From positions 954,945 through 1,017,541 of the forward strand of contig ML992501.1 in NCBI GenBank assembly GCA_010093995.1: DNA of 62,597 bases, given 5' to 3'. Both the position numbers and the translations under genes were made by a program. Within the stretch, counting starts at the first letter, position 1. Every line of letters begins with the position of its first letter. This DNA comes from Elsinoe ampelina. Lineage: Eukaryota. Below, piece after piece: positions 1,302-21,452 of this stretch. The notes under the pieces are model-generated. The model saw only the letters and a list, made by a program, of their open reading frames with translations. It did not search any database and was not told the DNA's origin.

Positions 1302-3830
1302 GATCACAGCGTACCTTTTATGTTTTGGTGTGTAATTTGAGCCGATGCGACGAGGATAAGGGTCGCTCTCTTGAGCTTGGAAGTGGTGGAATGGATGAGG
1401 TGGTGAAGGATGGACGTGTCGAAAGTGAGAAAGAGGAAAGTGAGCTCAGAGGTGGGAAAAGATTTGTTGATATGATGTAGAAAATTGTGGTGGTCGAGCT
1501 GTCCTAGCTTTTGGGGGGAAAGGGGAGGGTCAACGGCGGAAGTGGCGGGGCATGTGATGGACTTTTTCTTCAACGGAGAAAGGCAACAACGGCGAACAAA
1601 TTTTAATTGCAGAATCTGGAGAAGGAGCTTACAGGCAGGTGTGTGCATTGGACCTGACTAGACCTTGCGATATCGCCTAGCCATGTCCGTAGCCTCACGA
1701 AAGTGTGTGCGCTGTTTGTTGTGTCTTATCAAGCGGTTCGGTGAGCACACTACACCGTATCGCCATAGCTCCTTACCAATGACGTGTGGTCCCCTGTCTA
1801 TCATTCTTACGATGCTCCATATAATACCCACCACCAACACTCAACCAGAAACAGAGATTTCCAGCATTCGACCCTCCCAGGCCGTGGGTTCGCCTGCTGA
1901 CGTTTGGACCAGTGAGATGACGAACTGAAACCACGCTCAATAGTCCAGGAGGCGCAACGGACGTGGGGAGTGACGGCCAAACGACCATCCGACAGTACCA
2001 AGATTGGATGCAATCAGGCACAGGTCGCGCCATGTCCAACGTCGTGCCCTTTGCCCTTGTGATGGCGTCCAAGCTCTCGTTTGGATGTGTAAAATCAGGT
2101 CTGGAGGTGGCCAGCCAGGTCGACACGAATCAAGCCCTGACGTCCCGCGGGACTCTTGCTCCTTTTTCGGCCCCCACGCCGAAGGAAAAGTCTTCTCGAA
2201 GGTTTGGCGATATTGGCCCTGCGGATCACTGCAAGGCGGCAGATCTGGTCAAATACCGCCGGCTTTCCCTGCAGATCTGGATCAGGACCCTTGTGGTTCT
2301 GGTCGACGATGTCAACGCGGTGAAGACAGGCGAAAAGCTTCGTTAAGCGGACTCCGAGATCGCCACTGGCAGTTCAGCCGTCGTATTCTCAGCGTGTGCA
2401 TAGCTGACTATGGAGACGATCGACCTGCCAGTCCTGCCTCAGCCGGACATATCTCCCTGCATTGACGCAGCCAGGATCTCCCACGTCGCAGATCCCGCAA
2501 ACACCGCCTTTTGCCCACGCTCCCAACACACATGCCACGCTCAGCCCTGCCGCTCCTATGTCGGCTGGAGTCATGAACTCATGAACACACATGTAAATTT
2601 GGAGCGTCCGAATTGTTGCAACCACATAGAGCAGTTGCCGCCCCAGCAGGCTGTCAGTCGCACCCGTTTTGATCGTCGGTGGGTATTCAAAACATCTCCC
2701 TGAGCGATGGGCAGATCTCCCATCCCCAAATTGCAGAGTGGCTGCATCGAGCAGCTCGCTGCCGATGAGAAGATGCGCAACGCTTGACTTGACTGGATCT
2801 GCATCTTTACAAATGTCATGCAGGATATAGCATCTTGCGGTTCTACGTCCATCGGACACAACATTGCATAGATCGCAGTATCATACTGGTCTCGCCGACC
2901 TTCAAAAGTGGTAGGTGTGGACGGGTGGCATGTTCCCCTCTCCGCAAGCTTGAGACAGCATTGTGATAAAGGCTGGGGAGTTACGGTCTCCTCGCTGCTC
3001 TCCCAGGCATTGAGACTGCTGCATCGTTTCAGAGATATCAGGAAGGGCACGTCGACTGTTACCAACACATCATGGAGACAAAGGACCACATTGGTTGAGA
3101 AGTGAAAAATGGGCATGTCTGCAGACTACCATCAAGCCGCACGGAGAGGTCAATGGCACAAGAAAAGCTAGACGTTGAAGCCCCAGATTGATATTGTCCA
3201 GCTTTAACAATGATAAGCGAACAGAACAATTGACTCCAATGCAATGTCCTTGGAGGCATCGCTGGTGGGCGCCAAGAATCTCCACAAGGCCGCAGCGGCG
3301 TTAGGAGACCGGATATGTCAGCACTTCACGCGGCGCGATGACAATCCTGCTTACACATTCCAAGGCGTGTCAGAAGCTTCATATGTGTCCGTCTGCAATT
3401 CAAGCATTGGGACAAGGATGTTGGGCAATTAGACCAATCGTGCAAGGGAAATGCCAGGCAATTCCATGAAGAAAAGGGTGCGGGAGGACACTTTTTTTCG
3501 TTGAGACAAACGATGCCATGACGTCGTGATACCGTCCGCCGTGTCAAAAGGTGCCGAAACCCTTCACTCTGGGTCATTTTCTTTAACGCCATTTATCAGC
3601 GACCTCTAAAGTCCGAGATCAGCACAACGTAGGTCACCTCCTTCGGGCTTTCTCTTTCGCTTAACACCTGCAACATCGTGCTGTGCAGCTTGATGGGCAG
3701 CGCATTTCAATTCGTGATCCTCGATAAAGGGACCATCTCACCGTCCAAAGCCGTTGCCACTTAATGAATAAAACCATTATAATCCTTGCACCACAAGCGT
3801 CACAGTACACGACCATCAACATAATTCAAG

Positions 3831-6800
3831 ATGTGGCAGAACGGAGTCGACGAAGGTCGCATCCAACGTACTCAGTCTAACCTCAATCAATGGCACAATA
3901 TTTCCGCTCCTCTGCCCGATAATGACGGCCTTCATGAACAGCATAGTCCCGAAGAAATGGAGGAAGTTGAAGACAGTCCTGATAGATCAGGCACCTGGGG
4001 TGAACGAGATGCCGGAGCCCCCAACGAGGCTTCAGCTATGGCTGATTTCGAGGCATTACGGCGGGAACTCTCAAATCTTTCTCGAACACGCTCACGACCA
4101 GATTCACTTACCCGCCAGTCTACTCGCAACCGAATGTCTCTGCGGCGTACTAAGAGTTCACACGCAGACGAGGAAGCTGGTCAAGGAGATGGCGACGATG
4201 CCAGATCAGACGACGACTTCTCGCTCGACAACTTTATGAGAGAAGGTCACTTCGAGAAGCGGAAAGACGGCAAGTCGGCCAAGAAGGTTGGTGTCCTTTA
4301 CAAGAACCTCACAGTCCAAAGCGTGGGAGCGACAGCGGAATTCGTCAAGACCCTTCCGGATGCCATCCTCGGTACATTTGGTCCAGATCTTTGCCGCCTG
4401 ATCTCACGCTTAATTCCTGCCCTCAAGTCATCAAAGGGTGAACGACGAAATCTTATCAACGACTTCTCCGGTGTCATCAGGGACGGTGAAATGATGTTGG
4501 TGTTGGGCCGACCGGGTAGTGGATGTTCTACCTTCCTCAAAGCCATCGCCAATGACCGAGAGGCCTACGCTGCCGTCACTGGCGATGTATCATACGGGGG
4601 CATCCCAGCCGAAAAGCAAGCAAAGATGTTCCGCGGCGAGGTCAATTACAACCCAGAGGACGACATCCACTTTCCGACCCTCACCGTCTTCCAGACCTTT
4701 GTCTTTGCCCTCATGACAAAGACGAAGAAGAAGGCCGCGCAAGACATTCCTCTCATCGCCAATGCTCTCATGAAAATGTTCGGCATCAGTCACACCAGGA
4801 ACACAGTGGTCGGTAACGAATACGTTCGCGGTGTCAGTGGTGGTGAGCGGAAACGAGTATCCATTGCGGAGACTCTGGCATCGAAGTCTACAGTCGTGTG
4901 CTGGGACAACTCGACCCGGGGACTCGACGCCTCTACTGCTCTGGACTACGCCAAGTCGTTGAGGATCATGACTGATATCAGCAACCGCACCACCCTCGTA
5001 TCTCTCTATCAAGCCGGCGAAGGTATCTTTGAGCTCATGGATAAGGTCATTGTCATCGACGCTGGTCGTTGCGTCTATCAAGGTCCGGCGAACCAGGCCA
5101 GACAATACTTCATCGATCTTGGATTTTATGCTCCAGAACGTCAGACGACCGCCGATTTCCTCACAGCCGTCACCGACCCCAAAGAGCGCCAGTTTCGCGA
5201 CGGTCATGAGGCTTCGACACCGAAAACATCTGAAGAGCTCGAGCAGGCCTTCCATCGCTCGCACTTCTGGGAGCAGAACATGCAAGAGATCCAGGCGTAC
5301 GAAGAGTACCTCAAGGATACCGGACATGCAGACGCCAAAGAATTCGAAGGTGCCGTCCAGGAGGGCAAGTCGAAGACCGTGGCCAGAAAGTCTAGCTACA
5401 CTGTCAGCTTCTGGCGACAAGTCCTCGCATGTACGCAGCGAGAGTTCTGGCTGCTCTTTGGTGACAAGACCACCCTCTATACAAAGGCTTTTATCATCAT
5501 TGCCAATGGTCTAATCGTCGGCTCCCTCTTCTACGGTCAACCTCTCGACACTTCCGGCGCGTTCTCTCGAGGTGGCAGCACCTTCTTCAGTATCCTCTTC
5601 CTCGGCTGGCTCCAACTCACCTGCTTAATGGATGCCGTTTCCGGAAGAGCAGTCGTCTCTCGTCATCGTGATTACGCATTCTACCGCCCATCTGCCGTCA
5701 CCCTCGCACGAGTCCTTGCCGACTTTCCTATCATTCTCGTCCAGGTCATTGTCTTCAGCGTCATCATGTACTTCATGAACAGCTTGGATCTCGACGTCTC
5801 CAAGTTCTTCATCTACATGCTATTCGTCTACTGCACAACCATTTGCATCACTGCCCTTTACCGGATGTTCGCAGCGCTCTCACCGACGATCGACGATGCT
5901 GTCCGCTTCTCTGGTATCGCTCTGAACCTGCTTGTCATCTACACAGGCTACGTCATTCCCAAGACGCAGCTCTTGAGCAAGTACATCTGGTTCGGGTGGT
6001 TGTACTGGATCTCACCCGTATCTTACTCGTTTGAGGCGGTACTTGCCAACGAAGTCGCCGACAGAAACATGACCTGTGCTCCGTCGAACCTTGTCCCGCA
6101 AGGTCCTGGCGTTGATCCTGCATTCCAAGGTTGCGCCTTTGCCGGTGCAGACGTCAATGCAAAATACGTCAACGGTGAAGCATACCTCAACTCGCAATTC
6201 GACTACTCCAGGTCCCACCTGTGGCGCAACTTTGCAGTCGTCATCGCTTTCACTCTACTCTACCTTCTGGTCACGGTTTTCGCAGTCGAGGCTTTTAATT
6301 TCGTCAAAGGCGGTGGAGGCGCACTTGTGTTCAAGAAGACCAAGAAGGCGAAGCAGGCTATCAAGGAGGCTTCTCCAGCGGACGAGGAAAAAGCCACTGG
6401 CGATTCTGGTGACAGCTCGAGCGGAATTCTGGCGACTTCGCAAGATGTGGAGAAGGACGAGAATGACGCGCTCGAGAAAATCTCTGGGAGTCAAAGCGTC
6501 TTCACCTGGCAGGATGTCGAATATACTGTGCCATACGGGAATGGTGAACGTAAGCTTCTGAACAAGGTTTCTGGTTATGCTAAGCCTGGTGTCATGGTGG
6601 CTCTGGTCGGTGCTTCTGGCGCTGGCAAGACCACCTTGCTCAACACACTCGCCCAGCGCCAATCCACAGGTGTAGTGTCCGGAGATATGCTTGTCGACGG
6701 TAAACCGCTCGGAAAAGAGTTCCAGCGTGGTACTGGCTTTTGCGAACAGATGGATTTGCATGACGGGACCGCTACCATTCGTGAGGCTCTCGAGTTCTCC

Positions 6801-8480
6801 GCCATCCTTCGTCAGGATGCTTCGATCCCTCGATCCGAAAAGATTGCTTATGTCGACAACATCATTTCTCTCCTCGAAATGAATGAGATCCAAGACGCAA
6901 TCATCTCTTCGCTGGGTGTGGAGCAACGCAAGCGTCTGACCATCGGTGTGGAGCTGGCTGCCAAGCCCCAGCTATTGCTTTTCCTGGATGAGCCAACGTC
7001 AGGTCTCGATTCACAATCAGCATGGTCTATCGTACAGTTCCTCAAGCGTCTGGCTCGCGCCGGACAAGCTATTGTCTGCACAATCCATCAGCCTTCGTCC
7101 CAGCTCATCCAACAATTCGACATGATCCTCGCCCTCAATCCCGGCGGCAACACATTCTACTTCGGTCCAGTCGGTGAGTCCGGCGGCGAAGTCATCAAGT
7201 ACTTCGCCGACCGCGGCGTCCAATGTCCCCCCAACAAGAACGTCGCCGAATTCATCCTCGAGACCGCCGCCAAGAAGCCAAAAGGTAAAGACGGCCGCCG
7301 CATCAACTGGAACGAAGAATGGAAAAACAGCGACCAAGCCGCCGCCGTCCTCGACGAGATCAACGGCCTCAAACGCACCCGCTCCGAAGCCGCCCCCTCC
7401 ACCACCAGATCCGCGCCAGAAACCGAGTTCGCCGCCTCCATCCCCCTCCAAACCGCCGAGCTCACCAAACGTGTCTTCCGCCAATACTGGCGCGATCCAT
7501 CCTACCTCTACGGCAAACTCTTCGTCTCCGTCATCGTCGGAATCTTCAACGGCTTCACCTTCTACGCCCTCGGCTTGTCCATCCAAGACATGCAGAACCG
7601 CATGTTCACCTCCTTCCTCATCATCACCATCCCCCCCACCATCGTCAACGCCGTGGTCCCGAAATTCTACTCCAACATGGCACTCTGGCTGGCGCGCGAA
7701 CACCCCTCGCGCATCTACGGCTGGGTGGCCTTCACCACCGCGCAAGTAGCGGGGGAGATCCCCATCTCCATCGTCGGCGCGGTCCTCTATTGGGCGCTGT
7801 GGTACTGGCCCACCGGCCTCCCCCGCGACTCGGAAACAAGCGGGTACACGTTCCTCATGACCGTCCTGTTCTTCCTTTTCCAGAGCTCCTGGGGCCAGTG
7901 GATATGCGCCTTTGCCCCTTCGTTTACGGTCATCAGCAACGTTCTGCCGTTTTTCTTCGTCATGTTCTCGCTCTTCAACGGGGTTGTGAGGCCGTATGCT
8001 TCGCTGCCTGTCTTTTGGAGGTACTGGATGTACTGGGTCAATCCGTCTACGTACTGGATCGGGGGTGTACTGGCCGCGACGTTGCGGGGGGTGCCGGTCA
8101 GGTGTGCGGAGAATGAAGTCGCGCGCTTCACGGCGCCGCAGGGGCAGACTTGTGGGAGTTATGCTGGGGCTTTTGCGAGGCAGGCTGGAGGTTACTTGCT
8201 TGATGAGGCGGCGACGAGTTGTGAGTACTGTCCGCTCAGCAGTGGGGATCAGTATCTCTCGCAGTTGAATTTGGATAGTGGGCATATGTGGCCGTATTTG
8301 GGGATCTTCTGCATTTTTGTCGTCAGTAACTGGGCATTGGTGTACTTCTTCATCTGGACGGTGAGGATCAAGGGGTGGAGTTTTGGTTTAGGAAAGGTCT
8401 TCGGGAGCTTGGGTAAGGTGGTTGATTGGGTGAAGGGAAAAGTCGGGAAAAGGGACAAGGGGGAGAAGCAAGACGCGTAG
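3831..8480 (+). CDS. Full-size PDR-type ABCG multidrug transporter (NBD-TMD)2, intronless, 1549 aa
   Basis: GRPGSGCST, VSGGERKRVSIAE and CWDNSTRGLD in NBD1; GASGAGKTT, LGVEQRKRLTIGVEL and LDEPTSGLD in NBD2; two hydrophobic multi-TM blocks. Confidence 0.96.
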   Translation: MWQNGVDEGRIQRTQSNLNQWHNISAPLPDNDGLHEQHSPEEMEEVEDSPDRSGTWGERDAGAPNEASAMADFEALRRELSNLSRTRSRPDSLTRQSTRNRMSLRRTKSSHADEEAGQGDGDDARSDDDFSLDNFMREGHFEKRKDGKSAKKVGVLYKNLTVQSVGATAEFVKTLPDAILGTFGPDLCRLISRLIPALKSSKGERRNLINDFSGVIRDGEMMLVLGRPGSGCSTFLKAIANDREAYAAVTGDVSYGGIPAEKQAKMFRGEVNYNPEDDIHFPTLTVFQTFVFALMTKTKKKAAQDIPLIANALMKMFGISHTRNTVVGNEYVRGVSGGERKRVSIAETLASKSTVVCWDNSTRGLDASTALDYAKSLRIMTDISNRTTLVSLYQAGEGIFELMDKVIVIDAGRCVYQGPANQARQYFIDLGFYAPERQTTADFLTAVTDPKERQFRDGHEASTPKTSEELEQAFHRSHFWEQNMQEIQAYEEYLKDTGHADAKEFEGAVQEGKSKTVARKSSYTVSFWRQVLACTQREFWLLFGDKTTLYTKAFIIIANGLIVGSLFYGQPLDTSGAFSRGGSTFFSILFLGWLQLTCLMDAVSGRAVVSRHRDYAFYRPSAVTLARVLADFPIILVQVIVFSVIMYFMNSLDLDVSKFFIYMLFVYCTTICITALYRMFAALSPTIDDAVRFSGIALNLLVIYTGYVIPKTQLLSKYIWFGWLYWISPVSYSFEAVLANEVADRNMTCAPSNLVPQGPGVDPAFQGCAFAGADVNAKYVNGEAYLNSQFDYSRSHLWRNFAVVIAFTLLYLLVTVFAVEAFNFVKGGGGALVFKKTKKAKQAIKEASPADEEKATGDSGDSSSGILATSQDVEKDENDALEKISGSQSVFTWQDVEYTVPYGNGERKLLNKVSGYAKPGVMVALVGASGAGKTTLLNTLAQRQSTGVVSGDMLVDGKPLGKEFQRGTGFCEQMDLHDGTATIREALEFSAILRQDASIPRSEKIAYVDNIISLLEMNEIQDAIISSLGVEQRKRLTIGVELAAKPQLLLFLDEPTSGLDSQSAWSIVQFLKRLARAGQAIVCTIHQPSSQLIQQFDMILALNPGGNTFYFGPVGESGGEVIKYFADRGVQCPPNKNVAEFILETAAKKPKGKDGRRINWNEEWKNSDQAAAVLDEINGLKRTRSEAAPSTTRSAPETEFAASIPLQTAELTKRVFRQYWRDPSYLYGKLFVSVIVGIFNGFTFYALGLSIQDMQNRMFTSFLIITIPPTIVNAVVPKFYSNMALWLAREHPSRIYGWVAFTTAQVAGEIPISIVGAVLYWALWYWPTGLPRDSETSGYTFLMTVLFFLFQSSWGQWICAFAPSFTVISNVLPFFFVMFSLFNGVVRPYASLPVFWRYWMYWVNPSTYWIGGVLAATLRGVPVRCAENEVARFTAPQGQTCGSYAGAFARQAGGYLLDEAATSCEYCPLSSGDQYLSQLNLDSGHMWPYLGIFCIFVVSNWALVYFFIWTVRIKGWSFGLGKVFGSLGKVVDWVKGKVGKRDKGEKQDA

Positions 8481-10268
8481 AAGACCAGACTGATCAAGGT
8501 GCATTGGTATAGCATAGCGATTTGTGAGGCATACTTACATGGTCTCGCTATGGTAGAATGAACCTTCAAACTTCAGGACTGTTAATAGTCCTTACCTGTC
8601 CGCTTCTGTGGTGTTTGCGACAACCTCTCGTCGGCTTTGGTATATGTGTTCCCCCTTATATCTGTTTCGACTCTTGCGATGGAATGTATCTAGATGTTCT
8701 TCGTCGCGTTTGGTCTTCCTGATCCAAGGTTGGCGACTTGTGTCTCCAAGCCATCTGTTCTTTCTCTCGCCGTGAAGTGTCTGTATGGATCCGTCGATGC
8801 ATGCCGGTTACTGTCCGGGTGTATGATACTTGCTGCGTTGGGGCTTACTGATGATTCTGTGGTCATCACCCGCCTCATAGGACGTCTGGAGAAGAGTTTT
8901 TTGATGGTATAACGATGCTTTCCGTCTATTGTCGGTGATGCTGATGTTCTACTGATTAGGATATTGGCGCTGCTGATGCTTGAGCCCGGTATGAGATTGA
9001 CAACGCGTCTCTTGACATTCTCATGCTTGACACCTGTGTTGCGCCCCATGTCCTTTGGCGATGCCCTGTTTCACCAATCTGTTGACGACGCCTTTGTCCC
9101 TTTTCAGATCCAGCAGATGTCATCACCGAAGTACGAAACTGATGGAATTTTGAAGAAGCAGATGACGATAGTCTATCGAGTGTGATCACGCGTTTGTGCG
9201 ACTCTTTGTTTCGTTGTCCAGGAGCTGAAAATGGTGACGTGCTCTTTCTCGTAGGATGTCGAGGTCGACGAGGATGATTGTAACGAGGACCTGGTGAGAT
9301 AGGACCTATTTTGTCGGAGTCTACGGGTCAGTCCCCTATTGACGCGTCGTTGGGATTGGAGTATATATACCTTTGGGTGACTCATACATGACTGTGTTGT
9401 GATCAAGTCCTCATCAACGACATCATGGTGGAGTTGAAACTCTTTGAGAGGCTTCTATGGACTCATTGTCGGATCTTGAAGTCATTTGTATCGATGACCT
9501 CGTCGCCAGAGCTGAACTTGTCGACGCGAAATTTGCGAATATCTCAAAAGATGTAATCGGATTGCCAATGATTTCACGGATCGTGATAAGGGCAGCAGTG
9601 AGATCACAAGATACTGTCAGTGTATTACGTGGACTCTGGTGCTGTATGCTCCGAATGTTCATGCTCTTGATAGTCGCGTGATCCGTCACTGCTCCCTTTT
9701 TGAGAAGGATTTGATTTGTGAAAAGCGCGTCCGTCGAAGATCATGGCTGACGATGATTGTCGTAGCTGGATGAGATGGAAGAAGGGTGAGAAATAGGTGT
9801 CGAATCTGTCGATTGAGGTATACCATCTGCCCTGAGAAAAGATGAAGTAGTTGATGTCAACGAGGAAAAAGTGACGAGTAAATGTAAGTCTGAGCACTAC
9901 GAGCAAGCCGTAGCTCAAGATGCCATGGTCATGCTTGAGTGAACCACAAAAGTTGAAAGCATTGGGTGGGTGTGGCAGCAGCTTCTCGGAGTACCGAGGA
10001 TGACAGAAGAGACACCCGGTAGAAGAGACGCAAGTATCGCATAGACGCGCCGCCCACGCAACAAGAACACAGCTATGCTTGTGCGACCAAGCACTCCCCA
10101 AATAGTCTGTTCTCTCAACCTCGTGCAGTAGGCGCGTGCGTCGTGAGTCAAGAGCCAGTCATCTACCTTACCTCAGGTATACGTGAAGGAATCTCTTTCA
10201 GCTCACTTCTCAAAACAAATATCATATATCATTAAACATGGCTCGTCGTCGTGCTCAACTGAAGATTC

Positions 10269-10411
10269 GGCATCGTGGCGGAGTGGTTGTAAGTACGACC
10301 TGTTCGTTTGATGGCGTTGGAGTACTAATCGTTGTAGAACGCGCTGCCCTGCTATATCGAGATTGCTAGGCAGTACCTTCGGGTGCGCATGTTCGAATCA
10401 TGCCGATGTCG
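10269..10411 (+). tRNA. tRNA-Ser(GCU) with a 49-nt spliceosomal-type intron in the D-loop (10289-10337) and a 13-nt canonical 37/38 intron (10355-10367)
   Basis: Acceptor GGCATCG/CGATGTC plus discriminator G; D stem GCG/CGC; anticodon stem CTGCC/GGCAG with GCT at 10351-10353; variable arm TACC-TTCG-GGTG; T arm GCATG-TTCGAAT-CATGC. Mature length 81 nt. Confidence 0.9.
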
Positions 10412-10414
10412 TCC

Positions 10415-10419
10415 TTTTT
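10415..10419 (+). terminator. Pol III oligo-T terminator of tRNA-Ser(GCU)
   Basis: TTTTT starting 4 nt after the discriminator base. Confidence 0.7.
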
Positions 10420-10843
10420 GCTCCTGATAGCCACTAGGATGAAGAAATGTAGCCGAGGGGATGGATCGGTGATTCAGTCTGCACACTAAGAGAGGGGGTC
10501 AATCTGGCTAGACTCGCCTTTTGCGGGTCACATTTCGACCAACTCTGAAGAGAAATTAAGTGTTAGCACGTGAATGAGAACGAGAGCTTCCTGCAATAGA
10601 GCGATAACAGATGCAGCTGTACACGGATCCACTATCTTGCATCACGCAACTTGAGGGCAACTCGAGCTGTATGATATTTTCTTTCGTGCTGCAAGGGACT
10701 ACAGCACTCGCTGCCAGCACGAGGCTGCATTGCGAGTAGCATGTAGGATGGCCGGTAAAGCTACACTATGAGCAAGCAAAAAGTCAGATGAAGGCATGGT
10801 GAAACTGTCAAAAATGGTTCTTGTCACACACTTACCACCAATC

Positions 10844-10853
10844 AAAAACAAAA
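10844..10853 (-). terminator. Pol III oligo-T terminator of tRNA-Ser(AGA)
   Basis: Minus strand reads TTTTGTTTTT starting 8 nt after the discriminator base. Confidence 0.7.
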
Positions 10854-10860
10854 GGTACGT

Positions 10861-11055
10861 CGACTTCGATGTGATTCGAACACACGCTTTGACGCATCAG
10901 TAAAGGCTCCCAAGAAGATAGACGCATTGATCTCACCTCCCGAAGGAACAAGCTAGCGGTCAATGACCTGGTTCTAGGCTTGCTGATATTTCATTAGTCG
11001 TGCACCCCTGCAGACCAGGGAATACGAACCGCGATAACCACTCCGCCACGAAGTC
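10861..11055 (-). tRNA. tRNA-Ser(AGA) with two spliceosomal-type introns (11029-10983, 47 nt; 10936-10887, 50 nt) and a 17-nt canonical 37/38 intron (10971-10955)
   Basis: Spliced product GACTTCG TG GCG GAGTGGTTAT CGC G CAAGC CT AGA AA GCTTG TTCC TTCG GGAG C GTGTG TTCGAAT CACAT CGAAGTC G (81 nt). Acceptor and anticodon stems pair fully, and the long Ser-type variable arm and G73 are present. Confidence 0.9.
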
Positions 11056-11934
11056 CGGAAGCTGCCGGTGACGAGGTTGTAACAATATATGATGAGCAAT
11101 GTTTGAGGCCTTTGACATGGTCGAGTACGAAGGCCGAGTGCGAATTTCGCTGGACAATGGCTCAAGCTTTGACATGGGTCGCACACACGCTGGAGGAGGA
11201 TTGTGGGAGAATGTAGGCAGACCTCATCAATCTTCAAAACGTTATCGTATTAGTTCTGGCCAAATAAGATCGCGTGGAAGTGGCATCTCTACAGAGATGA
11301 CATGGGGATCCGGTCCGTCAGTAGCACTGTAGAGGGCCATCGAGACCTGCTTTCCACGCCGGAGCAAGAGTAGCCGAGGACGGGTTCGACGATCTCGCTT
11401 GAATGGTGGGTGTGGCTCTTTCCGCGTCAGATGCGCTGTTCAGCTCTGGTGCCAATCAAATTTGATGATTTCGGAACTCATATTGGTACGCGCTGAGAGT
11501 ATAAACCGCTCGATCACGCGCGAAAATTCCCAAGTTGCTGCCGACGTACTGAAAATGATTTAGACCGCATCGTATTTCATCTTGGCTGTGTATGTACAAT
11601 GTGGTCGGTTGGCCCATTGCTCTACGGGCCAAAATACTTTCGTTGTATGCGTATAGCTTGGACGCGAGTTACCAAGCAGCAAGCGGTTGATCCGTCACGA
11701 GAGTGAAGATCTGGAAATGGCTGAGGTGTCGCCAGCCTCCATATGAGTGGAGTGAGTCAATCGGAGTCGTGTTTGCTCTCGACCGATGTCGGCGCGCCGC
11801 GATGTGAGAGAGTCGCGGGGTTAAGCTCTGCTCCAAATTGATCGAATCAACTCAATAGGAGGTACATACTTTCCTGTCTTGCAGGTTGACTATGGTCCTG
11901 GAATATGGCGTTGAACCGGTCAATGTTATCATGC

Positions 11935-12861
11935 TCAGTCTGCGCCGAAATTCCAGTCGTCGAGATCAGCGTCATCATCATCGTCTTCTTCATCTTCTTC
12001 GTCATCCTTGCCCGCGTTTTGAGCTTGAGTATCGCCTACAATCTGACCGGTACCTCCAGTATTGCCAGACACCCCAGTCATCAGTTCATCCTTGATCTGC
12101 CCAGCGTGTTCAGGGAGAATCGTCGAAGAGCCTTTTCTGAGAGCCTCCCTCTTCTCTCTCAGCTTCCGGACTCTCTCTTCCAGCTCATCCATCTCGTCGA
12201 ACTCAGCTTGGAGAGCCTCTTGTGCATCGTCTCGCTCTTCCTCGAGCTCTTGTTCTCGCCGACCCCTCTGTATGCTTTGCTCTTCTCTCGCTTTGGCCGC
12301 AAGCTCTTCCGCAGTCATGGGCGCCGCTGATATTGTCGCGTTGGCATAGACTTGTTGCTGTGAAGATTTGTCGCTCTGCACGGGCTCGTCCAGCATCTTC
12401 TGCAATTCCAGCCATTCCGGATCGTCCTCGATTGCAAAATCTTTCACTTGACGGGCGGTACTTGACTGTGCTTGATCGGCCTTGCCTTGTGACAGTTCCT
12501 GTACCACCTGCGCTTCCGCATCTGGCTCCTCGCTGACCTCGATTCGAGGTATCTGAGCTCTTCTGCCGTCATCGTCATCGTCGTCGCTGTCGCCTCGTGC
12601 TCGCTTTCGTGTGTCGTCCTCTTCATCACTGCCCGCCTTTCGCTTCCTGCTGTTTGCCTGTGTCTTACTAGCTTCCGCCGCACGTAATGCTCGCTTAGCA
12701 TGCTCCGGTGTCTTGAGATGGCTGTTCCACTGTGCTTCCGACTTGATTGCGTGTTCGCAGAGCGTGCATTGTACATTGCCGTTGTCCGTATAGCGTGCGT
12801 AGGGATGAGTGACGCGCCTACTTTGACGGGATGCAGAGAGCAATGCGCGGGCGTCGGTCAT
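11935..12861 (-). CDS. ZNF830/CCDC16-like zinc-finger coiled-coil protein (308 aa from ATG 12861)
   Basis: N-terminal HPYARY..CTLC..W..HL...EH finger, RKRK NLS-like motif, acidic coiled coil, acidic C-terminus ending DDW. Confidence 0.75.
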   Translation of the reverse strand: MTDARALLSASRQSRRVTHPYARYTDNGNVQCTLCEHAIKSEAQWNSHLKTPEHAKRALRAAEASKTQANSRKRKAGSDEEDDTRKRARGDSDDDDDDGRRAQIPRIEVSEEPDAEAQVVQELSQGKADQAQSSTARQVKDFAIEDDPEWLELQKMLDEPVQSDKSSQQQVYANATISAAPMTAEELAAKAREEQSIQRGRREQELEEERDDAQEALQAEFDEMDELEERVRKLREKREALRKGSSTILPEHAGQIKDELMTGVSGNTGGTGQIVGDTQAQNAGKDDEEDEEDDDDDADLDDWNFGAD

Positions 12862-13116
12862 GGTTGTTGTGCTGGAATACTGCAAAGGAGCATAGAGAAA
12901 GAATGTGACAAGCAGTCGAAGATTGTTTGCACCGTTTGCAACCCGTGCTCGAGTGAAAGACGTCTGAGGTGTGTGGAGCCAGGGAAGGTGCGCCGAGGTC
13001 CACACGGATTTGGCGCGGCGGAAAATCCAACGTCGGCTTTTGCTCACCTGCAGTAGTTTCGTGGTCTGGTAGCACAAAGAATCGTGCATCATCCAATAAT
13101 AGCAATTTCTTTGATA

Positions 13117-15082
13117 ATGCGACCCTCTGCTTCATCTCCAGACAATGGAGATGATGATAGCGCCTCCAGTACCGGCAGCGGCGTGAGCATCCGACAGGAC
13201 AGTGAAGGATGGGAAGACCTCGAACCTGATGTAGAGACGATTGAGGTCAAGGACTTCTTCAGCGATGCGATGTTTTCAAGTGCGAAACAGATGCTTGATC
13301 ATTGCAAGAACGCACATGGCTTCGATTTTATCGGCACACAAAGAACTCTCGGTGTGTGCGTCAGTCCTTTGTCCAGCGACGGACCCGCCTTCTAACATAG
13401 CACAACAGGACTTGACTTCCTGGAGAGCATTAAGCTCGTCAACTATCTCCGGAAAGAGGCTCAGGCTGGTCAAATTATCTCGCAAGTCGATTTCAAGGAC
13501 AAGTTCTCAGCCGATGCTTTCCTACAGCCATCACTCGAGAATGACGCCCTCCTTTTCTCTCTGGACGAGGTGCTGGATGCGGAGGACGACCCACAGACCA
13601 ATGGAGATCATCCAGAGGCTACTAACGGTGACCATGAGAGCTCAGCAGAGTTGAAGCAGAGGCTCCAGGACCTCGAGGACCGCTTCGCCGAATACCGACT
13701 TGAAGTGGCAAAAACGCTAGACCAAAGATGGAACGACAGAACAGAAAACATAGCCAGCTCATCGAAGAGCAAAAGCGACGCCGAGATCGACGAAAAGTAT
13801 GACAGGGGTTACTTTGAGACTTACTCTTACAACGGTATGTGCCATGCACTCTGCATCCAGCTCGCTGTCGCCGGTCCCCCTTGTCTCTTGCTCAGCATTG
13901 TGCTCTTCGTGAACACGGTCGGTCGTTCCAAGCGAATGGTCGTATTCCTACAACACGGCGTAAAGCCGCCGTCCCGAAAACCTTTCCTCCTCAACCAGTA
14001 CACCAAGAAATGACTACACCTCTGCCTCGAATCAACGATGAATGGAGCTGACATCGATTCCAGAGATCCATCAGATCATGTTGCAGGACAGTGTTCGCAC
14101 CGATGCGTACCGCGACTTCATCTACGGAAATAAGCATCTCTTCAAAGACAAGGTGGTGCTTGACGTAGGTTGTGGCACCGGTATCCTATCCATGCTCTGT
14201 GCAAAAGCAGGAGCAGCAAAGGTCATTGCCGTCGACAACTCGGATATCCTCAATAAGACCAGATCGATCCTCTATGCGAACAAGCTCGATGGTGTGGTCA
14301 CTTGCGTGAAGGGCAAGATCGAAGAGATCTCTCTGCCCGATGGGATCGAGAAGGTTGATGTGCTGGTGAGTGAATGGATGGGATATTGCCTGCTCTTCGA
14401 AGCAATGCTTGACTCCGTTCTGTATGCCCGAGATCGCTACTTGAAGCCGGGAGGGTTGATGGTGCCCAGCCACTGCACGATGCAAGTGGGGGCGCTCGCT
14501 GATCCGGACTATGTCGAGGACAACTTCTCATTCTGGCAGGACGTATATGGCTTCGACATGACTGCGATGATGGAGAAGATCTATGATGATGTGTTAGTGC
14601 GATCTCCTGCAGCTTCTGCCATTGCCGGTCGCACCAAGGACAGGGAGCCATTCCAGGTCCTCGACCTGCACCGTGTAACAAAGGACCAGCTTGACTTCCA
14701 GACGCCCTTTACGTTAGTTCTAGAGCGCGACGTCGACTCTTTGGATGGCTTCTGTGTGTGGTTCGACACAATCTTCTTGACGAGTCCGGACCAGGAAGTG
14801 CCTCCACAGCTCCGACGTGGTGATGGTTTCGCCACCAAGTCAACAGAAGGTCCAGTCTTCTTCTCAACTGGCCCATTCACGAAGACGACTCATTGGCAGA
14901 CTGGTCTCTGCATGATCGACCCGAAGCAAAGTGGCGGCAATGCTTTGAAAGAAGGCTCTTTGATCGAGGGTACGATTTCTGTGGAGAAGAACAAAGAAGA
15001 GAAGAGGGCGATCAACATTGACTTAAGCTGGAAGGTCGGCCCTGATTCAAAGGCCAAGCGACAGCTCTGGTTCATGCGTTAA
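13117..15082 (+). CDS. RMT3: Type I protein arginine methyltransferase PRMT3/Rmt3-like; introns 13352-13408 and 13835-14063
   Basis: N-terminal HCKNAHGFDF..LDF..IKLVNY region, YSYNEIHQIMLQD across intron 2, VLDVGCGTG, SEWMGY and THW loop. Confidence 0.88.
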
Positions 15083-15349
15083 TGTAATCGGACTTTTCGA
15101 GGAATGGTTGCGGGTTATGAATTGGGACATGAACGGGGTACTTTTGCTGGTCTTGGCAAGGTGATGCTCTGCCGTCTATACCAAATCCACAGAGCTTCAC
15201 TCCAATTCCTCACTTCCCGTCACCTTACCAAATCCTTTTCGCAATCTCCTTTGATTTTACACGCCCCGTAGGCTTGTCAAGAAGCTCTTTCGCTACCTCG
15301 TTGCCTATATACACGCTCACAAAGACTTCACCCGTCCCTCACGAGCACC

Positions 15350-16125
15350 ATGAGCGACCGCAGAAACTCACAATCAGAGAAAAAGAACGAAGACACACCC
15401 TTCTCACCCAGTGAGATAGAGGCCATCATGGCCACGCCCAACAGGGCAAATGCCAGGCTGCTCATTGAGCATGCTCGCAGGGGGGGTTTCTACACCCCTC
15501 CGAGCTTCGATCCTACCGGCGCCCTCTTCACCAACCCTCGCCCATCCCCCCCTACTCCAAACCGCCCTTCCTCCAACGCCCCTTCTTCTCCAACCTCTCC
15601 GACTCCTTCTTCCCCTCCAACCCGCTCCGCCCCTCCGCGACCTCCCGCGCCAACTTCTTCGCCTCCGCCGCCCTCCGCCGCCCTCCGCCGCCTCGCCACC
15701 TCCTGCGCCAGCTGCCGCCTCTCCTCCTGCGCCTATTCAATCCCCTTCTCCTACGCCCCCCTTCACCCCTCCTCCTCCGCCTCCACCTCCTCCTGCGTTT
15801 CTTCCCTCTCCCCCGCCTCCTACGACCCCCGAGGAAGAGCCAGAGGAAGAGCAACGTGGGCGCGGCGCTGGTAGCCGCCCGGCTACACCACCAAGGGTAT
15901 GCTTGACCCAATTGACTTTCTGGTAGTTTCTTTGCTAATCTAACCACCACACAGCGAGCCAGACATTCAGCCAGAGGCAGGCCCCGCGCGTCAGCCGAGC
16001 AGAAGCAGGCAGAGATGAGGAACATCTCGGCGAATCTGGCGAGGAGCTTGGGTCAGGCGCGTGGGAAGTACTACCAGGGGAAGAAAGTCAGTGGGGAGGG
16101 GCAGCAAGAAGACAAGGAATCGTAG
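15350..16125 (+). pseudogene. Proline-rich hypothetical gene with an apparent +1 frameshift near 15662-15691; intron 15897-15954
   Basis: ATG 15350 frame reads sensibly to ~15680. The 15450 frame carries a GTATGC..GCTAAT..CAG intron and an open last exon to TAG 16125. Confidence 0.45.
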
Positions 16126-16759
16126 CATTCAGGAAGGGTGAGGTACTAAGAGATCACTGCAATCTGTATCGTGATCGGAGCTAATTATGATTCAGGCACG
16201 ACGAGCTGGTAGTATCACGCACGAATGAACTACCAGAAACAAGCCATTGAGAGGACGATATCGAGCAAGAAGGCAAGCAGAAGTAACCAGCTGGTAGTAT
16301 CAAACATGGTAGAACGCGATGAAAGACAGGCAAATCGAGCCAACATGGACATGGACAATGACGAGCTGGTAGTGCCTCGCGCAGCGAATGTAGAATATCA
16401 CGCCACGAATGATCACACCAAGATGATCACGATGCATCTGGTAGTACTACTGCTGGACAACAGCGTGGAAAGGTCATAGAAGGGGCACGATCTGGCGATT
16501 CTCGTGGTAATAATGAATGAAACGAACAAAGTGTGTCCTCGAGACGCGTCAAAGCACTCCCAGAAAGAAGCCCCATATGGTCTTTGTGACGTGCCTTGTT
16601 TCCGTGTTGCCCCACCCACCGCTCGAGCATCAATACTTCTCCCCTAAGCTTCCACCACTCACGCGAACCACATCACACCTTTCCACATCACATCACATCA
16701 CATCAATTGCAACTGGCCTGCAATATCTTCCAACTCCTGATTACATTCGTCCCTTCGTC

Positions 16760-18931
16760 ATGGCCTCTCACGGCAAGATCGTGTTCGCTCAATCCCCAGA
16801 AGTCGACCTGATTCTCACCAAGCTCAAGGCTGGTCAGGGTGTCGAGGTCGAGGTCGAGCATAACGGCCGCGTGGAGACAATCGTTCTACAAGACATCAGC
16901 ACTATCGAGATCGTCGACGACGGTGCCACCGGCGATGCTGTGAACAACCTTGATACCATTCGCACCATCCAGAAGATGAGCTTTCTTCCGCGCTCCGTGA
17001 GTTCCACGTCGGAAATTTCTGCCTTCACACTTACTGAGCTTTGGAAGGACTTACCTGCCAACGGCAACATGTCTTCGGCTCCAGAGAACAACCACAGTGG
17101 CGACGGGAACAGCAGCGACAACCCTGTCGGCGCTCGTCCACATGGCAGCAGCGACGACCCCGCCGGCACCACTGGTAGCGACAACCTTGTCACCTATAGT
17201 GGCCACAGCGACTCTCACGCCAACGATGCGACCACCTTTCACGAAGCGGATAGCGACAGCAGAAGCTTCAACGCACGTTTCCGTCCACTCACCCAAGGTG
17301 CAGGTCTCACGACGCTGCCCAACTCAACCGACTCACAGTCAACATCTCGCGCCACTTCACTTCCTGCCAACAACGACACCATGCCTACAGCCACTCACAA
17401 CAACAGCACTACTGCCACTGGTAATAAGCGCGCTCGCTCCGCTGGTGATGCCGGTGATGAGACTTCACCCAAGCGTCAGCGCACCAAGGAGACCGAAGGC
17501 GATGCACTCACGTCCGCTTCCCCCACCAAGCCATACACGCCTCCTCGTAGGCTGAGGACCCGTGCGCCACCCAAGTCAGCCACGGAGCGTGCCCTTGGGT
17601 ACACCAGCAAGAAGTACTCGTCGGAGCAGTCCAGGAGGGACGCCATCGCCATGGAGGAGGCATTGGCCCAGAACATCCCTGGCGTGTCGGGATTCACGCC
17701 GGTCCAGATGGAGGTCGGCTGGGTCGAGACCAAGAGTCCTCAGTACTTCGACAGCGTCGATGCTGCCAGAGCGGCCGAGCGTTCCGCCAGGGCTGCTGCC
17801 GGTGGGGACGCCACCATGGACAACACCGACGAGGGTGAAGACAACACCACCATCACCGCCACCCCCAAGGTCGCCGCAGCCGCCAACGACGACGACACCA
17901 CCACCCCTGGCACCAAGCCCACCTCCTCCGCCCGCCCAAAGCGCACGCTCCGCGGCAGCACCAAGCCCAACGCTCCCGCCACCGCTCCCGCCACCAACCC
18001 CGCCACCCCCAACACCGGCGGCTCCTTCATCACCTTCTCCGCCAGAGACGGCACCACAATCTCCCCGGACAAGCCCAAGTCCGCGTCCGCCAAGCGTCCC
18101 AAGTCGACCGCCACCAAAGCGCCCGGCGGCACCCACACAGTCATGACCAACGACTTGGGCACCACGTTCTCGCGCGCCAGCACGTACAACACCTGGCCCA
18201 ACGCGGAGAAGGAAGCCATCCGCTCGGCCATCTTCGACGAGAAAGTCGCCGCCGGAGCACCTCTCCTCGCGCACCACAACGAGTGGCGCAAGCGTCACGG
18301 CCAGGACGAGGTGCAGATGGTGGCGTTCCGCAGCAAGGTGAGCAAGAGTTTTGGTCCGCAGATCGGGGAGATGAAGCGCACCGGTAATGTGCCGGTCTGT
18401 GTCTCGCGTCCGTACCACTGGCCCAAGAATGGGGTCGAAGCCAAGGCCGTGGCGGCTGAGGTCGAGCGCAGGGAGCAGGCCAAGGAGCCAAAGGAGAGGG
18501 GTGCGGCGTATTTGGCGAAGTTCACGAAGCCGAGGGGTGTGGGGGGTGCTGTGGTTGGGGATGAGGGGGAGGAGGAGGGGGATGACGAGGAGGAAGAAGA
18601 GGTCATGCCGAAGCGCAAGACCCGTGCCGCCATCAAGCAGAACGAGGATGAGCCCGTCAAGCGCACCACTCGCGCCGCCGCCAAGGAGGGGAAGAAGGTC
18701 ACCTTCGCGCCTGCCAAGAAGGGCAAAGGAAAGAGCAAGAAGGCCGTGGCCGAGGAGGAAGAGGACGAGAGGAACAGTGACCGCGTCGATGTGATGCCCG
18801 AGAGCGTCCGCAGGATGTTCGCCGAGCGCGGCATCGGGCCGGCCGAGGAGGAGTTTGATCCTTTCCTCGACGCGGCGGGGCCGAACTGGTCCAACAACAG
18901 GGGTGAGAAGGAGGGTGATGATGAGGAGTAG
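16760..18931 (+). CDS. Hypothetical low-complexity protein (723 aa), T/A/K-rich with acidic C-terminus
   Basis: Long ORF with C/G-biased third positions; start placed at gtcATGG (MASHGK); no family recognised. Confidence 0.75.
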   Translation: MASHGKIVFAQSPEVDLILTKLKAGQGVEVEVEHNGRVETIVLQDISTIEIVDDGATGDAVNNLDTIRTIQKMSFLPRSVSSTSEISAFTLTELWKDLPANGNMSSAPENNHSGDGNSSDNPVGARPHGSSDDPAGTTGSDNLVTYSGHSDSHANDATTFHEADSDSRSFNARFRPLTQGAGLTTLPNSTDSQSTSRATSLPANNDTMPTATHNNSTTATGNKRARSAGDAGDETSPKRQRTKETEGDALTSASPTKPYTPPRRLRTRAPPKSATERALGYTSKKYSSEQSRRDAIAMEEALAQNIPGVSGFTPVQMEVGWVETKSPQYFDSVDAARAAERSARAAAGGDATMDNTDEGEDNTTITATPKVAAAANDDDTTTPGTKPTSSARPKRTLRGSTKPNAPATAPATNPATPNTGGSFITFSARDGTTISPDKPKSASAKRPKSTATKAPGGTHTVMTNDLGTTFSRASTYNTWPNAEKEAIRSAIFDEKVAAGAPLLAHHNEWRKRHGQDEVQMVAFRSKVSKSFGPQIGEMKRTGNVPVCVSRPYHWPKNGVEAKAVAAEVERREQAKEPKERGAAYLAKFTKPRGVGGAVVGDEGEEEGDDEEEEEVMPKRKTRAAIKQNEDEPVKRTTRAAAKEGKKVTFAPAKKGKGKSKKAVAEEEEDERNSDRVDVMPESVRRMFAERGIGPAEEEFDPFLDAAGPNWSNNRGEKEGDDEE

Positions 18932-20347
18932 AGAGGGGTCGAGGCGGGGTGGTGGAGGTTGTGGAGTGGGGGGGTAAGAGTGAAGGAACGGGTTGGTTTC
19001 AAGGGATAGGCATGGCAGATGATGGTCGTCTCTTCCAGGATGGGAGCACGTGACTCCTTTACAGCATAGCGTGGCGCGTGGCATAGCGCTTCTTTCGTCC
19101 TTTGTGGACAGCTACCGCATGGTATAGCTTTTGCTTCTGCTCTATAGCCTCATGATGGGGTTCGATGAAATGCATATTTACGGATAGGAGACGTCTGGTG
19201 CAAACCTTGATGGTGATGTGGTTTTGGAGATGGCAAGTGGTGAGGTGAAGTTGGACGGGCACAAATCGAGGGTGTGATGTGGGGTGGCTGACTGAGCGGT
19301 CCGACTTCAAATCACGATTCGAGGCATGATGGCAATTGAATATTGGATGAGGCACAGTAACAAATTCTGCTTCAAATGTCTTGATCGGGATCATCTGTGA
19401 GTGACAAAAAATATTTGTTTGTGAAGTGATTCATGTATCTGTGTGCCTAAAGTGTTTTGAAAATTCTTAGCAGGAGTGGTTATTTTTGGTACTGCAATTG
19501 TCCTTTGGTCTCACGCATAAGCCGCACCTATGACACCCGGCAAACCTCCCGTGCAAGACAGGAGATGCCATCGGTTTGGGACCATTCGAGGACCAGGATG
19601 CTGATCTCACTCTACCCGTCCACGAGTGCCTCACAGTACTCCTCCTCGACCAGGGCAAAACAGTGGAAGAGCCCAAACCTCAGAGCGGACTCCCACAACC
19701 TCCCTCCTGTCTGTCCTACACCTATCCTTCCCTCCCCAGCCAAAAATGCATCCTCCCTGACCCCGACTCGAACCCCGACCAAAAATGCAAAAAAGGAAGC
19801 ACTGCTTGGACAGTAACCGCCTGAAACTCTTCGGGGCGACGCGGAGTGGTTACCGGGATCTATTTACGCCGCTTACGGTTGGTTTGCTTTTTGTCACGAG
19901 CACACATGTTTTTTGGGGAAGGGGGTTCGTTTAGCCAGACTGATTGACGTTGCTGGTTACTCCTAATCTTCCTTGGAGTGAGGGGAGGGTAGGAAATAAT
20001 ATATACTTACTTACCTATGGGTGGTGTTTGTCACATGTCGCATTCGCGTTCGGCGAGCTGTGCGTGAGAGGGCTGTCACATGTGAAAACGTTGCCTTGCC
20101 TTTGTGGTTTCAACAAATCCTGCATCTTGAGATGTTCTTCTTGCTTACATCCACATCTCATATTAACAGGTTGAAGCCGTGACCATGGAGGCAGCGCACC
20201 CGTGCATTGACGAGGACGAGACCAGTCGGTGAGGATATCCGTTGCGTTCACTGCGATAGCGAATGTCACGCGAGCGATGCAGACTGACCTTGCGCCAGAC
20301 CCAACACTCCCCCTCTCAGCGACTCAAGCACACTCGGCGACGACTCT

Positions 20348-21193
20348 GTGGTAGATGTCGCATCTCCAGTGTCTGTCACCAGCGACGTTTATACAACGCT
20401 CGAGTCTCGCCTTGTCGACTTCATCTCGACTTATCGCTGCACACCAGCGCTCAAGCGCCACCTTCTCAATATCCTCAAGTCCACAATTCGTGCCTACCGA
20501 GATTTCTCTCCTGTCATGTCCACGCCGCCAAAGTCTGCCGGGATACCTTTCGGCATGACCGCCAAAGACATTGCGGCAGTGGACGCACTCAGTCGTTTGA
20601 CGATGACATGCCCAGGCTTCAAGTCGGAGGAGACTGTTGAGTACCTCAATTTGCGTGTGAAAGAGATCGCCCAGGAAGTCATGCATGAAGGTGAATGGAC
20701 CAAGGCCGCAGCAGACACAGTGATCGAGTCATTGTCCACAGTCGCGGAGTGGCTCATTGTGAGTTGGAAGGATCCGGGAAAGAAGAGACCTGGTCCAACG
20801 AGCGAGATCGAGAGGGAAGTCCTGAGGGCGGTCTGTGAGGGCAAGAGGTGGATGGCTGAGGCCAACAATGAAGTCCACAGACCCAATAGGAAGACGGATG
20901 GTCAGGGCGGTGTCCCGGTGGATGTGGCCAAGCTGGACAATATTGCCAAACTTCTGTTGCGTGGCAAACCATATCCAGTCAACAGGTTCATCCTAAGAGG
21001 AAGCAAGGCGCTGGGGAAAGATATGTCAACAAAGTGGAAGATTCCTCGCAAGTTGCTACCGTCCAGGTTCCGCAATACGAATGTCGGCATGCCGAGGGGA
21101 TATACGGGCTGCATCGAGTACGTGAAGCTGGCGGAGAGTATGAGGAGGCGGTTGGTGATCGAGGCAAAGACGGCAGAGGAGGAGGAAGAATGA
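20348..21193 (+). CDS. Hypothetical protein (start uncertain)
   Basis: 281-codon ORF with globular-looking composition; it begins at a GTG and the first in-frame ATG is near 20516. Confidence 0.55.
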   Translation: MVDVASPVSVTSDVYTTLESRLVDFISTYRCTPALKRHLLNILKSTIRAYRDFSPVMSTPPKSAGIPFGMTAKDIAAVDALSRLTMTCPGFKSEETVEYLNLRVKEIAQEVMHEGEWTKAAADTVIESLSTVAEWLIVSWKDPGKKRPGPTSEIEREVLRAVCEGKRWMAEANNEVHRPNRKTDGQGGVPVDVAKLDNIAKLLLRGKPYPVNRFILRGSKALGKDMSTKWKIPRKLLPSRFRNTNVGMPRGYTGCIEYVKLAESMRRRLVIEAKTAEEEEE

Positions 21194-21452
21194 GAAGGAG
21201 GAGTTAAATGATGGAGAAGGGCATGTCCTTGCCGTTGCGATGTTGGGTTAGGCACGGCATGCAATTGGCGGTAAGATCAAGTTGCTTTCCAGTATTATAG
21301 AAATGATATCCTACAGATAGCGGATGGGTATACAGCGCCGTTCATTCGTCATAATGTCGTAGAGTCATTATTCAGGGCCGGTCGTGAGGTTGTAAATGGT
21401 CCGTTCGTGGTTCATCATGAGGTAGACATTCCTGGGAACGGCATCAAGGTAT

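Follow-up and report, generated by a model that had tools for sequence, protein, structure and literature searches.

Spliceosomal introns are not confined to genes for messenger RNA (mRNA). The sole U6 gene of Schizosaccharomyces pombe is an RNA polymerase III (Pol III) gene and carries an intron that the spliceosome takes out, U6 genes of other fungi are described as having up to four introns with canonical signals and otherwise no conservation, and spliceosomal introns are reported for U1, U2 and U5 small nuclear RNA (snRNA) genes and for ribosomal RNA (rRNA) genes (PMC5855946). Reverse splicing has been proposed as the origin of the fission-yeast U6 intron. The sources cited for introns in snRNA and rRNA genes are reportedly Takahashi (1993, 1996) and Bhattacharya (2000). 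We have analysed a stretch of 62,597 nucleotides from the fungus Elsinoe ampelina (contig ML992501.1, positions 954,945 to 1,017,541 of the forward strand; this whole stretch is called the window below) and find in it two adjacent genes, for tRNA-Ser(AGA) and tRNA-Ser(GCT), that are interrupted by GT-AG inserts in addition to the canonical tRNA intron at position 37/38. From the sequence we judge, with a probability of about 0.75, that both loci are working nuclear tRNA-Ser genes with true U2-type (GT-AG) spliceosomal introns. A search of full-text literature, in which most subscription journals are not covered, turned up no paper that describes tRNA genes with spliceosomal introns; the reviews consulted are silent on them too, and the word stem 'spliceosom' is absent from a 2014 review of tRNA gene diversity (PMC4033280).

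The closest likeness is to fungal U6. Both are short structured non-coding RNAs whose genes hold short introns with a donor, a branch sequence and an acceptor, and in both the introns are unrelated between species and varied in position. Unlike U6, tRNA is not part of the spliceosome, and removal by the spliceosome, which has been shown for U6 in S. pombe, is a prediction for the tRNA inserts. Because tRNA lies outside the spliceosome, the argument from proximity to the active site that is available for U6 introns does not apply, and because the interrupted tRNA transcript would also hold an endonuclease-type intron, two splicing systems would have to act on one small RNA. The U1, U2, U5 and rRNA gene introns of ascomycetes are likewise spliceosomal-type introns in fungal genes that do not encode mRNA, including Pol I transcripts, and differ from the tRNA case in host RNA and polymerase.

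The tRNA-Ser(AGA) gene had been presented in a preliminary description as four exons separated by two spliceosomal introns and a canonical tRNA intron, and cutting the minus strand by the lengths given there reproduces every segment exactly:

10861..11055, minus strand: tRNA-Ser(AGA) gene, 195 nt, four exons, mature length 81 nt; placed by cutting and by ARAGORN, and scoring 28/28 in the census described below
11030..11055, minus strand: exon 1, 26 nt, with the 5' strand of the acceptor stem, the D arm with the A-box region, and G26
10983..11029, minus strand: GT-AG insert 1, 47 nt, separating nt 26 from nt 27, with donor GTTCGT, CTAAT (A 11 nt from the 3' end) and acceptor CAG
10972..10982, minus strand: exon 2, 11 nt, with the 5' strand of the anticodon stem and the loop to nt 37, anticodon AGA
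10955..10971, minus strand: canonical tRNA intron, 17 nt, at 37/38, as placed by ARAGORN
10937..10954, minus strand: exon 3, 18 nt, with nt 38, the 3' strand of the anticodon stem and the long variable arm
10887..10936, minus strand: GT-AG insert 2, 50 nt, at the border of variable arm and T arm (after mature nt 55), with donor GTGAGA, CTGAT (A 10 nt from the 3' end) and acceptor AAG
10861..10886, minus strand: exon 4, 26 nt, with the T arm (B-box region), the 3' strand of the acceptor stem and the discriminator G
10844..10853, minus strand: runs of four and five T, 8-17 nt downstream of the gene, a Pol III-type terminator
11086..11090, minus strand: ATATA element at -35 from tRNA nt 1

When both GT-AG inserts are deleted in silico, ARAGORN reports tRNA-Ser(aga) of 81 nt with a 7-bp acceptor stem and a 5-bp anticodon stem, as had been claimed for cutting at the GT/AG ends, and it places an intron at 37/38 where the 17-nt piece had been assigned. 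The equal length ascribed to the neighbouring tRNA holds as well, since that neighbour is tRNA-Ser(GCT), with a mature length of 81 nt, and is laid out as follows:

10269..10411, plus strand: tRNA-Ser(GCT) gene, 143 nt, three exons, mature length 81 nt; placed by cutting and by ARAGORN, census score 28/28
10289..10337, plus strand: D-loop GT-AG insert of 49 nt, following mature nt 20, with donor GTAAGT, CTAAT (A 9 nt from the 3' end) and acceptor TAG
10355..10367, plus strand: canonical tRNA intron, 13 nt, at 37/38
10415..10419, plus strand: run of five T, 4 nt downstream of the gene, a Pol III-type terminator

With the 49-nt insert removed, ARAGORN reads this locus as tRNA-Ser(gct), 81 nt mature, with a 13-nt intron at 37/38. 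Both products thus show the traits of a class II tRNA-Ser, namely the 7-bp acceptor stem, a long variable arm, discriminator G73 and an anticodon for Ser. The two genes are convergent, with 449 nt between their 3' ends, and neither is broken in the A-box region (nt 8-19) or in the T-loop/B-box region, as defined by the general consensus for these boxes. At the border of exon 1 and insert 1 of the Ser(AGA) gene, the last base of the exon and the start of the insert (11020-11030, minus strand) together differ at two positions from the B-box-like query GGTTCGAATCC; this GGTTCGAATCC-like string is probably a coincidence, because the donor there is GTTCGT. The same donor is found again in the tRNA-Ser(GCT) gene of a lichen fungus, described below.

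The window also holds ordinary mRNA introns with which the inserts can be compared. Its genes include a PDR/CDR-type ABC transporter, Rad4 and a PRMT-type methyltransferase, the PRMT-like frame being 99% identical to an Elsinoe ampelina protein and 77-78% identical to those of other Elsinoe species, which by itself points to E. ampelina or a very near relation among the Dothideomycetes. We mapped the reads of runs X3, X4, X5 and X1 to positions 3001-22000. Run X3 behaves as RNA, in that its contigs skip GT..AG segments of 57, 229, 58 and 53 nt on the plus strand and of 50 nt on the minus strand. The RNA-supported mRNA introns of the window are 50-58 nt long, except for the one of 229 nt; their donors are GTGTGT, GTATGT, GTATGC, GTACTA/GTGAGG and GTATAT, their branch sequences CTAAC, CTGAC or CTAAT, and their 3' ends CAG or TAG. 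Judged by length and signals, the tRNA inserts of the window (47, 49 and 50 nt) are of the same class as its mRNA introns.

Both genes escape standard detection. ARAGORN at default settings finds no tRNA in the whole window, Rfam at gathering scores gives no match there, and Rfam in E-value mode over positions 9800-11600 gives two weak unrelated matches only and no tRNA; when introns are allowed, ARAGORN locates the gene ends of both loci and misreads the interior. The failure of the standard finders and of the Rfam tRNA model is due to the inserts. A scan of both strands of the window for a T arm with a paired acceptor stem and A-box-like nucleotides picks out these two loci only. Segments of 45-57 nt that start with GT, carry CTRAY 7-16 nt from the end and finish with AG make up 265 of the 1,614,613 in the window (1.6e-4), and the cloverleaf pins the cuts of each insert to 1-3 positions that are equivalent in their product; at this rate per segment, and with the cuts so fixed, the probability of three such inserts by chance is of order 1e-10 or less. 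Besides this rate, the idea that we are looking at a chance resemblance or an assembly artefact has to contend with a DNA contig of 14,831 nt that covers 5117-19947 with no difference from the window, and with the recurrence of the same architecture in two adjacent genes and in unrelated records. The misassembly that the preliminary description had named as a danger is countered by that contig, with the proviso that the only DNA runs containing this stretch may themselves be the source of the assembly and so not independent of it. We regard this idea as extremely improbable.

Genes of the same build occur in other DNA. A metagenome scan for a Ser A-box string with GTNNGT 0-6 nt behind it gave at least 119 loci, and two among the 119 listed are tRNA-Ser(GCT) genes: L091, with a 51-nt insert after mature nt 20 (the site used in the GCT gene of the window) and a 49-nt insert within the T loop, and L098, in which nt 22 is followed by an insert of 52 nt and the variable arm is broken by one of 55 nt. 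The pattern demanded an insert in the D loop and made no demand for the second insert of either gene. A collection of prokaryote genomes, scanned for this A-box string, a gap of 90-120 nt and a T-loop string, gave 55 loci, most of them adjacent bacterial tRNAs or archaeal intron-bearing tRNA-Ser genes that we use as controls only. The acceptor stem is fully paired in 18 of the 55; 17 of these are prokaryotic (mostly archaeal), and the eighteenth, L152, is a low-GC stretch in a record (G001) labelled as the chromosome of an actinobacterial metagenome-assembled genome (MAG). This record is chimeric. Up to about 4.285 Mb its GC content is 0.68, and this part holds all 46 Rfam tRNA matches; beyond about 4,285,000 (C1, L209) the GC content is 0.32-0.55 over at least 2.35 Mb, the eukaryote-like part being 4,287,001-6,640,000, and a Trm1-like frame in the low-GC part has 78-80% identity to proteins of Lasallia/Umbilicaria, which are lichen-forming Lecanoromycetes. 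Scans of viral contigs gave one locus each, none with a paired acceptor stem.

We also ran a census in which one or two GT..CTRAY..AG segments of 40-100 nt are deleted, ARAGORN is run and 28 cloverleaf features are scored. On the window the census returns both Ser genes at 28/28 and nothing more. On the 2.353 Mb of lichen-fungus-like DNA it returns no uninterrupted and two interrupted tRNA genes, both at 28/28: a Ser(GCT) gene interrupted after nt 22 by a 57-nt insert and at 37/38 by a 15-nt intron, and an Asp(GTC) gene with a 59-nt insert after nt 26, the site of insert 1 in the Ser(AGA) gene of the window, and a 10-nt intron at 37/38. As controls, 137 kb of bacterial DNA yields 46 plain and no interrupted genes, and the 2.353 Mb reversed yields no interrupted gene. 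An ends-only scan and relaxed and triple-insert censuses of the lichen-fungus DNA reveal no further genes, and the T-arm motif occurs in it 7 times, as compared with 4 times in the reversed null, which means that this DNA does not conceal any large stock of genes whose T arm is intact. In the two samples not chosen for inserts, the window and the low-GC part of G001, all four tRNA genes, a small number, are interrupted.

Across these six genes, from at least three organisms, there are nine inserts of 47-59 nt, all of which start with GT and end with AG. The donors are GTAAGT (twice), GTGAGT, GTGAGA, GTGAGC, GTAAGA, GTAAGC and GTTCGT (twice), 9/9 have a CTRAY whose A lies 9-13 nt before the 3' end, and the acceptor is YAG in seven and AAG in two. 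The inserts follow mature nt 20, 22, 26, 53, 55 or 65 and never fall at 37/38, where each of the six genes has a separate intron of 8-17 nt. No insert has another copy in the window, and the inserts are not a repeat family there.

The exons and the inserts have evolved very differently. The five Ser genes all specify 81-nt products in which none of 115 stem cells (23 pairs) is mispaired, and 14 of the 23 stem pairs vary, in 12 of those with a change in both partners. Of the 35 unpaired columns, 31 show no variation. The identity of the mature sequences is 0.73-0.85, that of the inserts 0.51-0.65 as against 0.52 +/- 0.05 for shuffled sequences, the shared site included; the inserts found after nt 20 in two organisms are 0.63 identical, which is within the shuffled range. 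That exons are conserved and covary, with introns free but for their signals, argues against decaying pseudogenes, and the presence of two inserts in each of three genes implies that such a gene was still in use once it had gained its first insert. The argument against pseudogene decay made in the preliminary description from one gene is in this way strengthened over six. One could still hold that these are dead or decoy genes whose intron-like insertions are never removed and which make no functional tRNA. Such a view can appeal to the want of RNA evidence for splicing, to their rejection by standard finders, and to the other copies of Ser-AGA and Ser-GCT that may exist elsewhere in the genome. 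It does not readily accommodate the intact stems and the 12 compensatory pairs, the loop nucleotides, terminators and canonical introns kept in six genes of at least three organisms, the genes with two inserts, the unrelated inserts at the site after nt 20, or the interruption of 4/4 tRNA genes in two unbiased samples; it would also leave E. ampelina short of tRNA species for translation, if the published tally is taken as it stands (PMC8826637). We think it unlikely.

Our best reading of the sequences is that the six genes keep their tRNA function and that the spliceosome removes the extra introns, as it does in fission-yeast U6. Introns outside 37/38, however, are a known feature of tRNA genes in archaea and in Cyanidioschyzon merolae, where, as here, there may be several, in the D loop, variable region or T loop, and they are missed by standard finders. 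Those introns are defined by a bulge-helix-bulge (BHB) motif, in which a 4-bp helix stands between two 3-nt bulges at the two cut sites, and are cut by the tRNA endonuclease, whereas the fungal inserts have no BHB and carry GT..CTRAY..AG. The canonical eukaryotic intron at 37/38 is itself present in all six genes, and the 47-59-nt inserts sit elsewhere and carry spliceosomal signals. Removal without the spliceosome, by the tRNA splicing endonuclease and ligase as in archaea and C. merolae or by an unknown nuclease, has in its favour that ectopic and multiple introns are described for nuclear tRNA genes of C. merolae (PMC3728597, PMC3978253), and that in an exact-cut scan two D-loop inserts give 4/4 possible central pairs, mostly G-U. 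Exact-cut scans and scans sliding by +/-3 do not discriminate, as ARAGORN misplaces archaeal introns, and we replaced them with a strict test that asks for 4/4 central pairs and at least two of three pairs in each flanking helix, at product-equivalent cuts. A strict BHB is found in 0/9 inserts and, by chance, in 0.44% of all cut pairs; 13 of the 17 prokaryote control loci give a strict BHB whose removal yields a full-length tRNA, a loose positive control, since for any one locus ARAGORN will take more than one solution. BHB introns, moreover, need no GT, branch or AG, and GT..CTRAY..AG occurs in 0/16 archaeal tRNA inserts as against 9/9 of the fungal inserts. The eukaryotic tRNA endonuclease finds where to cut by measuring from the mature domain, and so is not known to cut other than at 37/38. 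Removal of the inserts without the spliceosome is, on these grounds, very unlikely.

The 17 control loci (L122, L128-L131, L135, L139, L144-L147, L149, L154, L158, L159, L168 and L170) are of some interest in themselves. They are tRNA-Ser-like genes, mostly from archaeal MAGs, with inserts of 40-77 nt and an A-box string in common with the fungal genes; several are called Thr or Ala by ARAGORN because the intron is misplaced.

The absence of a BHB, the match in signals and length to the mRNA introns of the same genome, the intact hallmarks of the genes and the recurrence in four genes of other fungi all agree, at the level of sequence, with the spliceosomal introns proposed in the preliminary description. 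Which polymerase makes the precursor is a separate matter. In 6/6 genes the 25 nt downstream include five or more T in a row, the longest T run inside any insert being four, the A-box region is intact in 6/6 genes and the B-box region in 5/6, and ATATA or TATAT lies at -35 to -50 in 5/6. On account of the T-run terminators, the intact box regions and the upstream ATATA element, Pol III probably transcribes the interrupted genes. The T-loop insert of L091, however, splits the B box, and this, together with the upstream TATA-like elements, leaves room for Pol II. On that alternative the genes and the spliceosomal removal are the same, and the precursor is a Pol II transcript, possibly longer, that starts from the TATA-like element and from which RNase P and RNase Z free the tRNA. 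The spliceosome normally works on Pol II transcripts, as a recent preprint has it (10.1101/2025.06.17.660180), and this would fit such an origin, as would the ATATA or TATAT of five genes and the split B box. Yet the T runs after every gene are what Pol III termination would lead one to expect, the A- and B-box regions are otherwise kept, and an upstream TATA is described as serving Pol III too at S. pombe tRNA genes (PMC11547032). No long spliced RNA contig crosses the locus, although cover there is too thin for this to count. Transcription by Pol II seems to us improbable.

Under the favoured reading, that of working tRNA genes with spliceosomal introns, events might run as follows, with excision, its place among the processing steps and the polymerase all deduced. 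Each gene would be transcribed from its own unit, most likely by Pol III. By intron definition the spliceosome would recognise each 47-50-nt insert from its donor, CTRAY and AG and would remove it as a lariat, and the D/T-loop core would fold only once the inserts are gone. RNase P, RNase Z, the tRNA splicing endonuclease and the ligase would then act, the last two on the 37/38 intron, to give the 81-nt tRNA. The inserts likely arose, in the way proposed for the U6 intron, when excised introns were reverse-spliced into abundant tRNA and the product was then reverse-transcribed and recombined into the genome.

Several points weigh against this reading. No junction, lariat or mature-tRNA read is seen, the depth over 10269-11055 being only 0.6-0.8 in run X3 and 0 in X4 and X5, too low to speak for or against splicing of the tRNAs. 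Two of the nine acceptors are AAG and not YAG, and the GTTCGT donor, used by two inserts, is weaker than GTRAGT. The split B box of L091 is awkward for a Pol III promoter that depends on TFIIIC. Pol III transcripts, which lack a cap and the C-terminal domain of Pol II, are not usual substrates of the spliceosome, and U6 may be a special case in that it sits inside the spliceosome. There may be uninterrupted copies of the same isoacceptors elsewhere in the genome. The sample, finally, is small: unbiased sampling gave four genes, two in the window and two in G001.

Textbooks keep apart the spliceosomal introns of Pol II transcripts, the tRNA introns removed by endonuclease and ligase, and the introns of the XBP1/HAC1 type. 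A 2025 preprint restates a division into three separate classes (10.1101/2025.06.17.660180). A tRNA gene that needs both the spliceosome and the endonuclease and ligase would blur this division, would extend the U6 precedent to an RNA with no place in the spliceosome, and would raise the question of whether uncapped Pol III transcripts are, as a class, open to the spliceosome. One of the routes proposed for intron gain is reverse splicing into abundant RNAs, and interrupted tRNA genes are a possible product of it.

There would be consequences for annotation as well. A 2022 survey of 459 fungal genomes with tRNAscan-SE 2.0 at a score cut-off of 50 lists 11 species, E. ampelina among them, with fewer than 30 anticodon types, which is below the theoretical minimum, and its authors put forward super-wobbling or the import of tRNA (PMC8826637). 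That some genes escape detection on account of spliceosomal-type introns may be a simpler account of the sub-minimal tRNA set of E. ampelina, and it makes a published puzzle testable. With both genes of the window invisible to ARAGORN at default settings and to the Rfam tRNA model, tRNA counts, codon-adaptation analyses and claims of 'missing tRNA' for such fungi may be wrong. We can go further only tentatively: that a large share, perhaps most, of the nuclear tRNA genes of Elsinoe and of other Pezizomycotina, including Lecanoromycetes, carry spliceosomal introns is conceivable, with odds somewhat short of even. In that event tRNA production in these fungi would depend on the spliceosome, two unrelated splicing machineries would process one small Pol III RNA, and the small anticodon sets given by the survey for E. 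ampelina and ten other fungi would be artefacts of gene finding and not signs of import or super-wobble.

The read mapping brought up further observations in and around the window's other genes. At 9321-9370 on the minus strand, X3 contigs (depth 3.9) skip a 50-nt GT..AG intron with GTATAT, CTGAC and TAG, in the interval that separates the ABC transporter from the tRNA pair and has no long frame on record; it may belong to an unannotated small or non-coding gene. The 229-nt intron (13833-14063), directly before the PRMT frame, is spliced in X3, and in X4 and X5, which bear the same species label and are 1-5% diverged, its joint is one base off, with an extra T, which suggests that these two runs come from a different isolate or a sibling lineage. 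At 7563-8013 all three RNA-like runs (depth 642 in X3) show a skip of 449 nt with ends AC..TC and not GT..AG; long loose contig ends flank it at 7543 and 8044, and it looks like transcript contigs of a paralogous ABC transporter that touch a conserved stretch, not like an intron. In the DNA run X1, a 54-nt contig over 5117-5146, with a depth of 47 against about 157, departs from the window within the ABC-transporter frame, at 5146. The loose end of this contig is similar to an arm of a loxP site, and the contig could be the trace of an engineered construct or vector in run X1.

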